From the NCBI RefSeq assembly GCF_030013205.1, contig NZ_CP122648.1: DNA of 64,000 bases. One strand, written 5' to 3'. This document shows, one piece after another, positions 48,001-51,000 of the stretch. Position 1 is the stretch's first letter; every line of letters begins with the position of its first letter. Made by a program: the position numbers. Source of the stretch: Escherichia coli (GTDB lineage Bacteria > Pseudomonadota > Gammaproteobacteria > Enterobacterales > Enterobacteriaceae).

Positions 48001-51000
48001 GAAAAGTGCTTTAAGGCAGTGGCGCTGGCCTGGCACAAAACCAACAAAAAATGGTCGGCTGATTATGCCGCCCGTATTCTCGCCAGTATGGAAAACCATA
48101 TCTTCCCGGCGATTGGTCATCTGCCAGTTGCCACTCTTAAAACGCAGGATTTACTGCTTTGTTGCGGGTTATCGAGGATAAAGGCTTTCTGGAAGTCGCG
48201 TCCCGAACCCGGCAGCAACTCAGCAACATCATGCGCTATGCCGTTCAGCAGGGGCTTACCGAAAGCAATCCGGCGCAGCATCTGGATGGCGTTGTCGCCT
48301 CACCCGTAAAGAATCACTACCCCGCGTTACTGCTGGAGCGGTTGCCCGAACTGCTTGGCCGCATCGGTGACTATCAGCAGGGCCGGGAGTTAACACGGCT
48401 GGCGGTGGTGCTGACGTTGCACCTGTTTATCCGTTCCAGCGAACTGCGTTTCGCCCGCTGGAGCGAGATCGATTTCAGGCACAAAATCTGGACCATCCCC
48501 GCCACCCGCGAGGCAATCGACAAAGTACGGTTTTCGGGGCGTGGCGCAAAAATACGTACCCCGCATATCGTGCCGCTCTCCCGCCAGGCGATTGCCATTC
48601 TGAAACAGATACAGGAGCTTTCCGGCCATCTGGATCTGGTGTTTCCCGGTGATCATAACCCGTACAAGCCAATGAGTGAAAACACCACCAACCGGGCGCT
48701 ACGCCTGATGGGGTATGATACGAAAACTGAAATCTGCGGGCATGGACTCAGGGCGATGGCCTGTAGCGCCCTGGTGGAGTCGGAGCTGTGGTCACGCGAT
48801 ACGGTGGAGCGGCAAATGAGCCACCAGGAGCGTAACAGCGTGCGGGCAGCCTATGTGCATAAAGCGGAGCATCTGGAGGCCAGAAAGGCCATGATGCAGT
48901 GGTGGTCGGATTATCTGGATGTGTGCCGCGAGGGGTATGTTGCGCCGTACATTTATGCCCGGCAGCATAAGGCAGCCTGAATCAGAAATAACGGAAATCA
49001 TTAAAAATGTAAAAGCAGATCCTGATTGACCGGGATCTGCTTATTGTATTGAGAAGTATTACCATTTTTCTGTTATTATCAATCGGAAAGTATCTAAAAA
49101 TATTTGGCCCCAAATAATTTTGGTGAAAACCAATCAATAAACCATTTATCAATAGGTAAGTACCGGAAATTATTCCAGTAGAATATTTTCAGGCGATTGC
49201 CTATTAATAAATACATTATTGATAGATAAGTGCCTTCTGTGATTTGTCCGCAAATCACAGAAGATGAAAACCTATCAATACGGGATATTTTCACGGAAAT
49301 ACCAATTAATACTCCAGAATATCTCCTGACCATATACTCTGAAACCTGTAAGAACTGCATCAGATATTGAGAGACCATATAGATATAAGTCTGAAATTAT
49401 TTTGTTTCCAATGATTTCAGGCGAAAACCTATCAATGCATCTGTTTTCAATAGGCAGCCACCTTCCGTGATTAACATGTTAATCACGGAAGGTGAAAAGC
49501 TATCAATAATCGATATTTTCACGGAATTACCACTTAATACATCCCAAAAAATGCGCCATAAAATACCGGGCAATCTTTCCTGATACACATTATCACTGCA
49601 CCAGCTATACAGAGACAAAATAATCTGCACCAGCCCCTGTAAATCGGTTATTTGTGCCAGTGTCCCGCCGCTCTACCTGTTCAGGGTTGTGCCAGTTTCT
49701 GGCCCTTTGGTTTTCGGCCCTTTCCGGTCAGGCGCTGTTACCCTTATTGCCCCTTAACCTTTATGACCCTTTCCCTTTCTGACGCAACCAGTTTATTTTG
49801 AAATGCTCCATGACAGTCTGCACCAGACTGTATTTTCACCACAGGATAACGATCACAAAGTGCAAAAAAATAACATGAAGCACCAAAGATTGTTAATCTA
49901 TATGTAGCAGGTAATGATGTCAAAAACTGTCGCAGCATTTTTTATAAAATTATGAGACATTCTGTGGGCATATAATATATGTCACAAGATGCAGGAAAAC
50001 AAAGAGAGAGTTTTCAGATATAATCCTGCGTTAGAATTAATGTGATGCCCCGGTGAATTTACATTTTAAAATTTCCCTGTCCCGTAATATCGGTAAAAAC
50101 GATTGAAACACCAGCTATTAATCGGGAACGTCTCGAGTGATTACAGGGTAATCACTATAATATCCCGGCAAACTATATTGGTTAAGCAGGAGAATCTGAT
50201 CAGTTGATATTTATTCGTCATGCTGTAACGATATTTTCACAATATAAACCCGTTCGCCCCCTGCGCCAGATCCGGTACAGAGGGTACGATAAATCGCTGT
50301 CGTTACGCAGTAACGTACTATTTTGCGACATTCATGAATTCAGTCATTCCTCCCTCCAGCGGTAGCCGTACACCTGTTTCACCCAGCGACCGCGACCGTC
50401 GCCATGACCCAGATCCGTCGCCGTCAGCGCCAGTGACTCCTTTTCGCTGAATCCCTGCGCCAGTATCCAGGACTGTCGTATAACGGGGACGCCCGCCTTT
50501 GGTGCCAAATACCACTTTTAGCCGGGTTTCACCGCGGGAAATGGCTTTCAGCCACGTTTTCAGCGACTGTGAACTCTGTACCGCCTCCTGCGAACGCAGC
50601 CCCATCAGCCGCGCAATCTCCAGCGCTGCTGCCAGCCCTGCGTCCTGAGTACGGGCTTTCTCCATCACCTGCCTGCGTCCAGCCTGTCTCAGCACGGCCC
50701 GCAACGCTGCCATTTCGTTTTGCAACGTTCGTAAACCAATATCCAGCTCCAGCCGTTCCTCAATGTAGCATTCGATATGGCGAACCTTGATCTGCTCCAC
50801 CCGCTGGATCTGGATATTCAGCGCCCGTAAATGTTCACTGAACCGTTTTGTAATATGGATACGGTCATTCACCGTTTTGAAGCTGCCGCCCGCTTTCTTC
50901 GCCAGCGCCTTCATTTCACTGCTTAATTTACTCATGAATCCCTCTGCAACAAAAACAAACAGTCTCCGGCGTGTGCTTTTTGGCTGCGCCAGAACGATAC

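Follow-up and report, generated by a model that had tools for sequence, protein, structure and literature searches.

A conserved purine-rich block in a 9-bp repeat array, a putative cis-acting element of an int2 module in Enterobacterales islands

Results

Organization of the locus

The window, by which we mean the whole stretch of DNA analysed (64,000 nucleotides of contig NZ_CP122648.1, Escherichia coli RefSeq assembly GCF_030013205.1), is an E. coli tRNA-Asn island whose features are collected in Table 1. Following the tRNA gene, one meets the integrase pseudogene int1, whose orthologs carry the domains Arm-DNA-bind_3, Phage_int_M and Phage_integrase. Next comes a hairpin flanked, in the orthologs, by runs of A and T, which is likely to be the terminator shared by the convergent genes int1 and int2. 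The pseudogene int2 shows two internal deletions when compared to intact E. coli copies, and the EFASI motif directly upstream of it keeps this position in every intact locus tested. As the 3' end of tRNA-Asn is not found again downstream within the window, an attR or tandem-island junction was rejected. The islands that carry the element described below also carry isrK/C4 antisense RNA systems.

An intact int2 ortholog matches PF12835 at 8e-63 and PF12834 at 5e-37, and the orthologs retain the catalytic residues R, K, H, R, H and Y. MpsA, the atypical relaxase of SGI1, has PF12835 as its signature (PMC10484663; PMC6414798), and MOB_M relaxases are reported to adjoin an integrase in 96% of cases (bioRxiv 10.64898/2026.01.13.699239). 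Through this shared Pfam family, int2 is probably an MpsA-family, MOB_M-like protein, with a putative role as relaxase.

Table 1. Coordinates in the window of the tRNA-Asn gene, of the two recombinase-type genes and of the repeats around them
Feature	Position	Strand	Remarks
tRNA-Asn	47482-47557	+	Island integration site (attL side)
int1	47719-48980	+	P4-type integrase pseudogene, frameshifted (annotation); convergent with int2
GC-rich hairpin	49013-49042		Just past int1 stop codon
Whole unit (block and 9-mers)	about 49560-49860		About 300 bp
25-nt inverted repeat	49583-49607		Pairs with 51425-51449
Four 9-mer R repeats, CTGGYGCAG	49596-49695	-	int1-proximal side of block; read yTGYRCCAG on + at 49596-49604, 49625-49633, 49652-49660, 49687-49695
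Conserved polypurine block	49696-49790	-	int2-sense strand, 71% purine (alignments, composition)
CCCTT-type motif ggcccttt	49701-49708	+	Sequence scan
CCCTT-type motif ggcccttt	49716-49723	+	Sequence scan
CCCTT-type motif accctta	49740-49746	+	Sequence scan
CCCTT-type motif cccctta	49750-49756	+	Sequence scan
CCCTT-type motif acccttt	49766-49772	+	Sequence scan
CCCTT-type motif cccttt	49773-49778	+	Sequence scan
Six CCCTT pentamers	49703-49777	+	Starts 49703, 49718, 49741, 49751, 49767, 49773
Decayed inverted R copy, inside block	49729-49737	+	CAGGCGCTG in window; CTGGCGCTG in most orthologs
Second decayed R copy	49779-49787		CTGACGCAA
R1 9-mer	49818-49826	-	int2-proximal side of block; in local palindrome 49813-49831
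int2	50344-50935	-	Pseudogene (RefSeq annotation); relative of MpsA-family (PF12834+PF12835) tyrosine-recombinase-like proteins
EFASI RNA motif (RF02957)	50991-51118	-	100.8 bits, E 8e-21; directly upstream of int2
Four inverted-orientation 9-mers	51266-51623	-	Upstream of EFASI; CTGCACCAG on int2-sense strand; TGCACCAG at 51266-51273, 51293-51300, 51428-51435, 51616-51623

A CCCTT cluster within a purine block and an array of 9-mers

A preliminary description of this DNA had pointed to a cluster of six CCCTT-type motifs, and all six are found in the window, the starts of their pentamers being 15, 23, 10, 16 and 6 bp apart. Over the 64 kb, CCCTT is rarer than expected (71 copies observed on both strands versus 108 expected), so that its density here is extreme: with 6 non-overlapping copies in 80 nt, it forms the top cluster of any 5-mer in the whole window. 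We compared this with 200 first-order Markov simulations of 64 kb each: the densest 5-mer cluster had 5 copies in 15 of them and 6 in none; the over-representation suspected at the outset is thus borne out against simulated sequence. The pyrimidine fraction over 90 nt at this place, 0.72, corresponds to the 99.97th percentile of the window.

The cluster makes up the pyrimidine strand in a polypurine/polypyrimidine block of about 95 bp, placed between the int1 and int2 pseudogenes. On the minus strand this block reads (A)AAGG(G) six to eight times (seven AAGG(G) motifs in the window), and its most conserved core is TAAGGGTAACAGCGCC(A/T)GACCGGAAA(A/G)GGCC. Around it, 9-bp CTGGYGCAG repeats form an ordered array, and block and array together make up the unit. 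The 9-mers flanking the block are a more regular repeat than the CCCTT motifs and were absent from the preliminary description. The R repeats are 27-35 bp apart, and their positions are kept in other lineages while the spacers between them differ; the 9-mer itself is sharply bounded, its flanks not being conserved. In Klebsiella, the 2 kb around int2 contain about 18 copies, those upstream and those downstream of it in opposite orientations. Since CTGGCGCAG is made of common E. coli codons, some of the copies within coding sequence may be incidental. We know of no match for the 9-mer among Chi, KOPS, dif, sigma-54, NtrC half-site and LexA-like sites, none of which fits.

Distribution and co-inheritance with int2

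About 70 loci, spread over at least 12 genera, have the block downstream of int2 and in the same orientation; these genera include Klebsiella, Citrobacter, Kluyvera, Phytobacter, Tatumella, Brenneria, Affinibrenneria, Pantoea and Salmonella. The preliminary description had allowed that the stretch might be missing from homologous islands; it is present and conserved there. Taking the 21 reference-genome loci in which int2 is 77-95% identical, we found the block downstream of int2 and on the int2 sense strand in 17. The same arrangement occurs in 52 metagenome and viral contigs and, where the flanks suffice, int2 is upstream of the block and a convergent integrase downstream of it. The viral contigs gave three matches, at contig ends; the phage collection gave none, and the plasmid collection a single record, a 473-kb Salmonella replicon with identical gene order. 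A fimS-like invertible switch was rejected, the orientation relative to int2 being identical in all of the roughly 70 loci.

Between the window and the loci of Klebsiella, Brenneria and Salmonella, no intergenic DNA other than the block can be aligned; its identity is 77-80%, versus 68-76% for the flanking coding sequences. In Brenneria the unit begins about 25 nt past the int2 stop codon. Every one of 20 orthologs has 68-74% purine and 6-8 AAGG. Distant int2 homologs (about 50% identical) have no comparable repeated 7-mer, which led us to reject the repeat array as a trait of the whole family. In distant int2 relatives the same downstream slot is occupied by a STAXI element.

Over 31 distinct loci, block divergence correlates with that of int2 (r=0.77, partial 0.77, Mantel p=0.0005) far better than with that of int1 (r=0.32). 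The int1 and int2 lineages reassort (r=0.16), and the same block is found beside int1 proteins merely 31-60% identical to the Salmonella reference int1. As the divergence of the block tracks int2 and not int1, we tentatively assign it to the int2 module rather than to the int1 system. This co-inheritance could also reflect the placement of recombination breakpoints instead of function. Moreover, a variant that keeps int2 and the outer 9-mers and has no block exists at 99.9% identity in two species (loci L016 and L017), which means that the block may be dispensable for persistence, and perhaps for spread.

Two deletions terminate exactly at 9-mer copies. A third one, in the same pseudogene, terminates at an unrelated 9-nt direct repeat, and hence ordinary short-repeat deletion accounts for them; site-specific recombination at the 9-mers was rejected.

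Discussion

A proposed cis-acting element of the EFASI-int2 module

The idea that the CCCTT stretch is a protein-binding cis site is a reasonable one in general, because the repeat element is non-random, conserved, non-coding and situated beside recombinase-type genes. We tentatively favour, at a little under an even chance, the reading in which the unit of about 300 bp is a cis-acting element of the EFASI-int2 module and a putative protein-binding site. The unit is conserved, holds its position and orientation, is inherited together with int2 and displays no coding or RNA-fold signal; from this we infer that it binds protein and any role that it may have in transfer.

The mechanism that we envisage is as follows. 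The EFASI-int2 module is located at the tRNA-proximal end of a family of Enterobacterales islands that are integrative and probably mobilizable. The 9-mers would be occupied by a DNA-binding protein encoded by the module, the candidates being int2, via its core-binding domain, a Ner/SfsB-like HTH_35 protein and a 153-aa partner. The strand-asymmetric purine block between them would provide the core, either as a specific binding site or as a structural element. With the 9-mers of opposite orientation upstream of EFASI, the unit might then build up a higher-order complex by which DNA processing around int2 (a relaxosome or a recombination synapse) is helped or regulated.

In its description, such an element resembles the transfer origins of the MOB_M systems SGI1 (mpsA/oriT) and pIGRK (mobK/oriT), and a transfer role of the block is putative. 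In both systems oriT lies upstream of the relaxase gene and has functionally important inverted repeats. Here too, a conserved non-coding cis region with short direct and inverted repeats adjoins a tyrosine-recombinase-like gene of the PF12835 family, on an island that also has a separate integrase, and one strand is G-rich, as in the pIGRK oriT. The differences are nevertheless clear: in every locus the block follows int2 instead of preceding it, the upstream slot being filled by EFASI; it has no conserved stem-loops, while the SGI1-type oriT has three conserved hairpins; and int2 has its own N-terminal core-binding domain, while SGI1 has a separate MpsB. The block may also be compared with STAXI (RF01728), which takes the same slot just downstream of int2-family genes in the same kind of mobile-element module (the order in distant relatives is STAXI-EFASI-int2-STAXI). 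The two show no similarity in sequence or structure, and the block has no Rfam match, STAXI being a repeated pseudoknot and the block an unstructured, purine-rich sequence.

Alternative explanations

The unit might instead act as RNA, either as the 3' UTR of the int2 mRNA or as a separate ncRNA of about 300 nt that begins a short way upstream of R1. Hfq, ribosomes or another RNA-binding protein would then bind to the purine-rich (ARN/Shine-Dalgarno-like) block, and CUGGYGCAG would pair with the CUGCRCCAG repeats of the int2 5' leader, as C4/CI-type immunity RNAs do with short repeated targets. In agreement with this, the block is invariably found on the sense strand of int2, after its stop codon and ahead of the shared hairpin terminator, and the 9-mers on the upstream side are perfectly complementary to those downstream; the presence of isrK/C4 systems on the same islands also fits. 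A sigma-70-like site seen in the window (TTGACA-17-TAGATT, 49923-49895, minus strand) would read through the unit. However, over about 200 nt the folds gave -11.4 and -8.2 kcal/mol, with covariation terms of -0.4 and -0.2, and RNAalifold on 20 orthologs and both strands detected no conserved RNA or single-stranded DNA helices beyond the complementarity of the 9-mers; we rejected a structured RNA or single-stranded DNA on the strength of this negative result. Nor did the unit match any family of Rfam 15 when 49560-49860 was searched at E up to 10, the STAXI and EFASI models included, while the positive controls, EFASI and tRNA, were found nearby. An intrinsic terminator at 49691-49703 was likewise rejected, its stem not being conserved beyond the E. 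coli lineage. On balance, we consider an RNA-level element unlikely.

A second possibility, to which we give about half as much weight, is Rho-dependent termination: the C-rich plus strand, which is the int1 sense strand, would be a rut site halting int1 read-through antisense into int2. Rut sites are defined by a transcribed strand that is unstructured over about 80 nt, rich in C and poor in G. Over 94 nt, C makes up 35% and G 17% of the plus strand of the block, along which YC recurs regularly; int1 and int2 are convergent, and in the aspV-type island the stop codon of int1 stands right against the unit, no hairpin terminator separating the two. Against this, rut sites are degenerate, when the block is near-invariant across genera; its G content (17-23%) is not especially low, and its excess of C over G reaches no more than the 96th percentile of the window; in most lineages an intrinsic hairpin terminator already stands between int1 and the unit; and the block tracks int2, not int1.

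It is very improbable, in our opinion, that the minus-strand GGG tracts fold into an oriT G-quadruplex recognised by a coupling protein. There are precedents, as a G-rich segment of the pIGRK oriT is needed for transfer and not for nicking by MobK, a tyrosine-recombinase-like relaxase, and the coupling protein TrwB was reported to bind G-quadruplexes (PMC8152469). The block adjoins a relaxase-like gene of the same broad class as MobK, and it has 3-8 GGG tracts on one strand versus 0-2 CCC tracts. Yet a canonical motif (loops of at most 7 nt) exists in just 3 of the 20 orthologs, the copy of Salmonella India has only 3 GGG tracts and the G4Hunter maxima are mostly 0.9-1.4. The G-quadruplex is not conserved among these orthologs and was rejected. 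Besides, the conserved unit is AAGG(G), and the conservation of its flanking A's points to sequence recognition and not to G-tracts alone.

Another reading starts from an analogy. Poxvirus type IB topoisomerase, which works by 3'-phosphotyrosine chemistry, has (C/T)CCTT as its target. The same pentamer is found here, all copies on one strand, adjoining a gene of the same catalytic superfamily, and by this resemblance int2, as a protein of the tyrosine-recombinase/topoisomerase-IB fold, might cleave at CCCTT. The pentamers would be strand-specific cleavage or recognition sites of int2, the block would be the region of nicking or a second site for transfer or termination, and the CTGGYGCAG array a loading platform. 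We view this as a long shot. If it were true, it would give the first defined DNA target of the MOB_M-type class in enterobacterial islands, and the int2 clade would be a group of widespread, uncharacterised chromosomal MOB_M-type relaxases.

The preliminary description had likened the cluster to arm-type recombinase sites, such as those of P4-like elements, or to iterons. It was right as regards a non-random, conserved, non-coding repeat near recombinase-type genes; neither identification is supported. The short direct repeats do stand beside an integrase gene with an arm-binding domain, they are conserved in homologous islands and, like the arm sites of the lambda and P4 families, they are short (9-10 bp) direct and inverted repeats with irregular spacing. 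Arm sites of P4-like integrases, however, are expected no more than a few hundred bp away from the att core. A distance of 2.1 kb separates the block from the att core at the tRNA-Asn 3' end (47557), and the int1 stop codon (48980) comes in between. The spacer between the tRNA and int1 (47558-47718), where the attL arm is expected, contains neither CCCTT nor the TGYRCCAG/CTGGYGCAG 9-mer. Unlike arm sites, the repeats are inherited with int2, which has no arm-binding domain, and not with the arm-domain integrase; the divergence values, and the same block at loci with dissimilar int1, speak against arm sites as well. As to origin iterons, these are tandem 17-22-bp repeats with regular, helically phased spacing and an adjacent rep gene. 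The units here are of 5-7 nt with an irregular spacing of 6-23 bp; no rep gene is annotated in the source genome of the window or in intact Klebsiella islands, and we noted neither DnaA boxes nor an AT-rich unwinding region. Position and co-inheritance largely refute this reading, which we hold to be highly improbable.

Finally, the idea of a chance effect of composition, or of a coding sequence that is short or decayed, is refuted and keeps almost no probability: short ORFs do overlap (49 aa from TTG, 49652-49801, plus strand; 64 aa, 49744-49938, minus strand), but none of the 200 simulations matches the observed clustering, the block is conserved in at least 12 genera, there are stop codons in all three minus-strand frames, and indels of 1 nt, seen between close lineages, disrupt each of the reading frames, so that a gene or small peptide was rejected.

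Significance

MOB_M relaxases were recently reported to be the commonest relaxases in the chromosomes of model enterobacteria, and their DNA sites are known for three elements only. We have defined a compact, strongly conserved, un-annotated DNA element, composed of a purine block and an array of 9-mers, which travels with one int2 clade across many genera, on islands carrying T6SS, Rhs and anti-phage cargo. In the present window the unit is a relic, with int1 and int2 both reduced to pseudogenes and the attR repeat gone, and it mostly marks the end of a decayed island. If the element is a binding or processing site, it would offer a handle on the mobilisation or regulation of these islands, and a marker with which related islands could be recognised in genomes, gene-less remnants included.

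The CCCTT cluster and the unit around it

About six CCCTT repeats within some 80 bp had been pointed out in the preliminary description, and they are borne out. Six copies occur on the + strand at 49703-49777 (starts 49703, 49718, 49741, 49751, 49767 and 49773); window-wide, CCCTT falls short of expectation (71 occurrences on both strands vs 108 expected). Six CCCTT in 80 nt is the densest clustering among all 5-mers of the 64-kb window. The best cluster of any 5-mer always had fewer than six copies in 64-kb sequences simulated with a first-order Markov model (0 of 200 reached six). 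The cluster is not due to chance.

Read on the minus strand, the cluster is a repeated (A)AAGG(G) within a block (49696-49790) having 71% purine on that strand; the ortholog alignment gives the block consensus TTGCGCCAG-AAAAGGAAAAAGGCC-GATAAAGGTAAAGGG-N5-TAAGGGTAACAGCGCCAGACCGGAAAAGGCCAAAGGGCTGAAAAGGC-N5-CTGGCGCAG. A second repeat, more regular than CCCTT, flanks the block: the 9-mer CTGGYGCAG (R), and block and R array make up a unit of about 300 bp. The 9-mers are sharply delimited, retain their positions although the intervening spacers diverge, and lie in opposite orientations on both sides of the EFASI RNA motif and int2, a pseudogene convergent with the P4-type integrase pseudogene int1. 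A 25-nt imperfect inverted repeat pairs 49583-49607 with 51425-51449.

Positions of features in the window and in loci fetched from other genomes (L-numbers)
Feature	Position	Strand	Remark
yeeO			5' of tRNA-Asn
tRNA-Asn	43250-43325	-
tRNA-Asn	45658-45733	-
tRNA-Asn	47482-47557	+	bears the island
int1	47719-48980	+	frameshifted P4-type integrase
Gap between int1 and int2			1.36 kb, un-annotated, contains the cluster
R, four copies	49596-49695		int1 side of block
Stretch with cluster	49700-49780		tggccctttggttttcggccctttccggtcaggcgctgttacccttattgccccttaacctttatgaccctttccctttc
R, two copies	inside block		decayed, inverted
R, one copy	49818-49826		int2 side of block
int2	50344-50935	-	frameshifted "integrase domain" pseudogene
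EFASI (RF02957)	50991-51118	-
R, four copies	51266-51623		opposite orientation, upstream of EFASI
HTH gene and 153-aa ORF			past EFASI
Rhs gene	53020-57012
~55-nt palindromic units	49419-49507; L007 4926-5203 and 5544-5643
44-nt stretch ACGGGCTGCGGCCTGCATTGCCGTCAGGCTTTGCTGCCGCGTG	~51300-51345; L007 3537-3582	- (window)
EFASI	L007 3765-3895; L013 3774-3904
EFASI	L028, L036, L039, L044 at about 3719-3870
STAXI	L028, L036, L039 at about 3100-3330 and about 4950-5270
isrK and C4	L007 2204-2407; L013 1479-1680; L048 7319-7506

Further repeats were seen nearby. Repeated ~55-nt palindromic units ending CCTATCAAT/ATTGATAGG (e.g. GTACAAAAAATTTTGGGGCCAAAATTTTTTGTAC) lie on a side of the block that varies by lineage; they might represent modules of a MITE-like or binding-site type. 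A 44-nt stretch upstream of EFASI is another strongly constrained non-coding element: it is identical between the E. coli and Klebsiella (L007) lineages, which share only about 67% int2 protein identity. The CTGGCGCAG/CTGGCGCAA 9-mer also recurs within the int2 coding sequence of L007 (4082, 4112, 4187, 4271 and 4769). Five such in-frame 9-mers, four of them read as Leu-Ala-Gln, are found in the Klebsiella and Salmonella lineage, fewer in Brenneria; at these positions Leu-Ala-Gln is missing from ~50%-identical homologs, and mostly from the E. coli lineage. This suggests selection at the DNA level on the 9-mer inside int2. A near-consensus sigma-70-like site (TTGACA-17-TAGATT) is predicted in the window at 49923-49895 (-), directed through the unit toward int1.

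A decayed copy in the window

The window is E. coli chromosome with 100% identity to swine ETEC strains, and only the third of its three tRNA-Asn genes, which lie within 4.3 kb, bears this island. As no second copy of the tRNA-Asn 3' end remains in the window, the island is a fixed remnant. Compared with L054 (5924-6808), the int2 pseudogene has two internal deletions, of 95 nt between GTGGTGGAG and GTGATGGAG and of 194 nt bounded exactly by two CTGGCGCAG copies. Deletions ending at 9-mers are thus present in this pseudogene; since a neighbouring deletion ends at an unrelated 9-nt repeat, ordinary short-repeat deletion suffices to explain them. With int1 frameshifted, int2 so deleted, two internal 9-mers degraded and attR absent, the window copy is best seen as the relic of a once mobile module.

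Conservation and linkage to int2

Of 5426 complete E. coli genomes, 490 (9%) contain the region, at 728 places in all; these are always chromosomal and belong to tRNA-Asn islands and to tRNA-Asp (aspV, T6SS) islands. A three-way alignment including the 80%-identical aspV copy shows the CCCTT block to be clearly more conserved than its flanks; what a Salmonella locus has in common with the window is essentially the block alone. With the intact Salmonella int2 protein as query, 43 loci were retrieved from one-genome-per-species contigs. Of these, 21 have an int2 of 77-95% identity, and in 17 of the 21 four to six AAGGG are clustered on the sense strand of int2, 40-450 nt 3' of its stop codon. 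Among the genera are Klebsiella, Citrobacter, Kluyvera, Phytobacter, Tatumella, Brenneria, Affinibrenneria, Pantoea, Entomohabitans and Salmonella. Scanning metagenomes and viral contigs for the pattern added 52 loci; those with enough flank have int2 upstream and a convergent integrase downstream, the sole apparent exception, L058, being a truncated remnant. Apart from the block, no intergenic DNA can be aligned between the window and the Klebsiella, Brenneria and Salmonella loci (block identity 77-80% vs 68-76% for flanking coding sequences), and 6-8 AAGG and 68-74% purine are kept in 20 of 20 aligned orthologs. One Affinibrenneria salicis genome carries two inverted, 100% identical module copies of 8.87 kb (L013 and L014; scaffold 1, 524006-532875 and 542254-551123), separated by about 9 kb at their closest ends.

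Over 31 distinct loci, int1 and int2 protein distances are hardly correlated (r=0.16): the two lineages reassort freely. The block diverges in step with int2 (r=0.77, partial 0.77, Mantel p=0.0005) and far more weakly with int1 (r=0.32). A Klebsiella-type block is present where int2 is 92-94% but int1 about 60% identical to the Salmonella reference proteins, and E. coli-type blocks are all paired with E. coli-type int2. The cluster had been likened to arm-type recombinase sites or iterons, a reading to which we now give almost no credence: besides its weak tie to int1, the block lies 2.1 kb from the att core and its motifs are missing from the tRNA-int1 spacer, while the spacing is irregular and there is no rep gene.

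The int2 module

Intact int2 orthologs match PF12835 (Integrase_1, 8e-63) and PF12834 (5e-37) and retain the tyrosine-recombinase catalytic R, K, H, R, H, Y. PF12835 also serves as the signature for detecting MpsA, an atypical relaxase that resembles tyrosine recombinases and is encoded by Salmonella genomic island 1 (SGI1) (PMC10484663; PMC6414798). MOB_M relaxases, the commonest chromosomal ones, adjoin an integrase in 96% of cases (bioRxiv 10.64898/2026.01.13.699239, preprint), with which the int1/int2 pairing agrees; judged by the shared Pfam family, int2 probably belongs to MOB_M. SGI1-like islands have, upstream of mpsA, an oriT of three conserved stem-loops (PMC8409611) and, between the two, an essential small RNA (PMC9299015), whereas this slot is held by EFASI, about 60-130 nt upstream of the int2-family gene, in all loci examined, close and ~50%-identical. 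Because the SGI1 oriT and sgm-sRNA occupy the same position relative to mpsA, EFASI may by analogy be the oriT or sRNA of the int2 relaxase-like clade.

Distant int2 relatives (~50% identical) have the order STAXI-EFASI-int2-STAXI, after which an ArdC-like gene often comes, and possess neither the block nor the 9-mer array; hence, in one clade the unit takes the place of the downstream STAXI. This gene order suggests that the PF12835 family of int2 is what the name of STAXI means by 'XerDC integrase'. Intact islands also carry isrK and C4 antisense RNA (P1/P7-type immunity RNA) 1.5-2.5 kb upstream of int2, accompanied by an Ash-family gene. Cargo genes include, in Klebsiella islands, those for MazEF, a UvrD-like helicase and Multi_ubiq/Bub-type proteins; E. 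coli islands carry T6SS or Rhs.

Possible role of the unit

We tentatively propose, at somewhat under an even chance, that the unit serves the int2 module as a cis-acting DNA platform, to which a module-encoded protein would bind. The 9-mers look like protein-binding sites because they are sharply defined, stable in position between diverged spacers, and opposed around EFASI-int2. The purine block amid them would be a sequence-specific or strand-asymmetric core, on which the protein would build a higher-order complex assisting or controlling DNA processing at this island end. Candidate binders are int2 (through its core-binding domain), a Ner/SfsB-like HTH_35 repressor or the 153-aa protein.

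A role at the RNA level, as int2 3' UTR or non-coding RNA, is unlikely: the unit matches no Rfam family, and no RNA or ssDNA fold is conserved on either strand of the block. That the C-rich strand is a Rho rut site seems improbable. Slightly more doubtful still is a G-quadruplex, with a canonical motif in 3 of 20 orthologs and no more than three GGG tracts in one ortholog, a result which matters because a G-rich segment is essential for transfer in the pIGRK oriT (PMC8152469). Coding was rejected (stops in all frames, 1-nt indels between close lineages).

A block-less variant bears on the platform proposal: an 8.9-kb locus, 99.9% identical between a Brenneria sp. and Affinibrenneria salicis (L016 and L017), still carries int2 and the outer 9-mers, the block being deleted, relative to L013 (about 4890-5060), between the 9-mer-like repeats CTGGTGCAG and CTGATGCAG. 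Its persistence in two species argues against an essential role of the block.

The unit is un-annotated, and we found no prior description of it in the literature searched. While the window instance is decayed and the cis role is a proposal, conservation and linkage to int2 are well supported. The unit represents a sequence family that is new, though its general kind is known: it would function as a cis site of a mobilization or recombination module.
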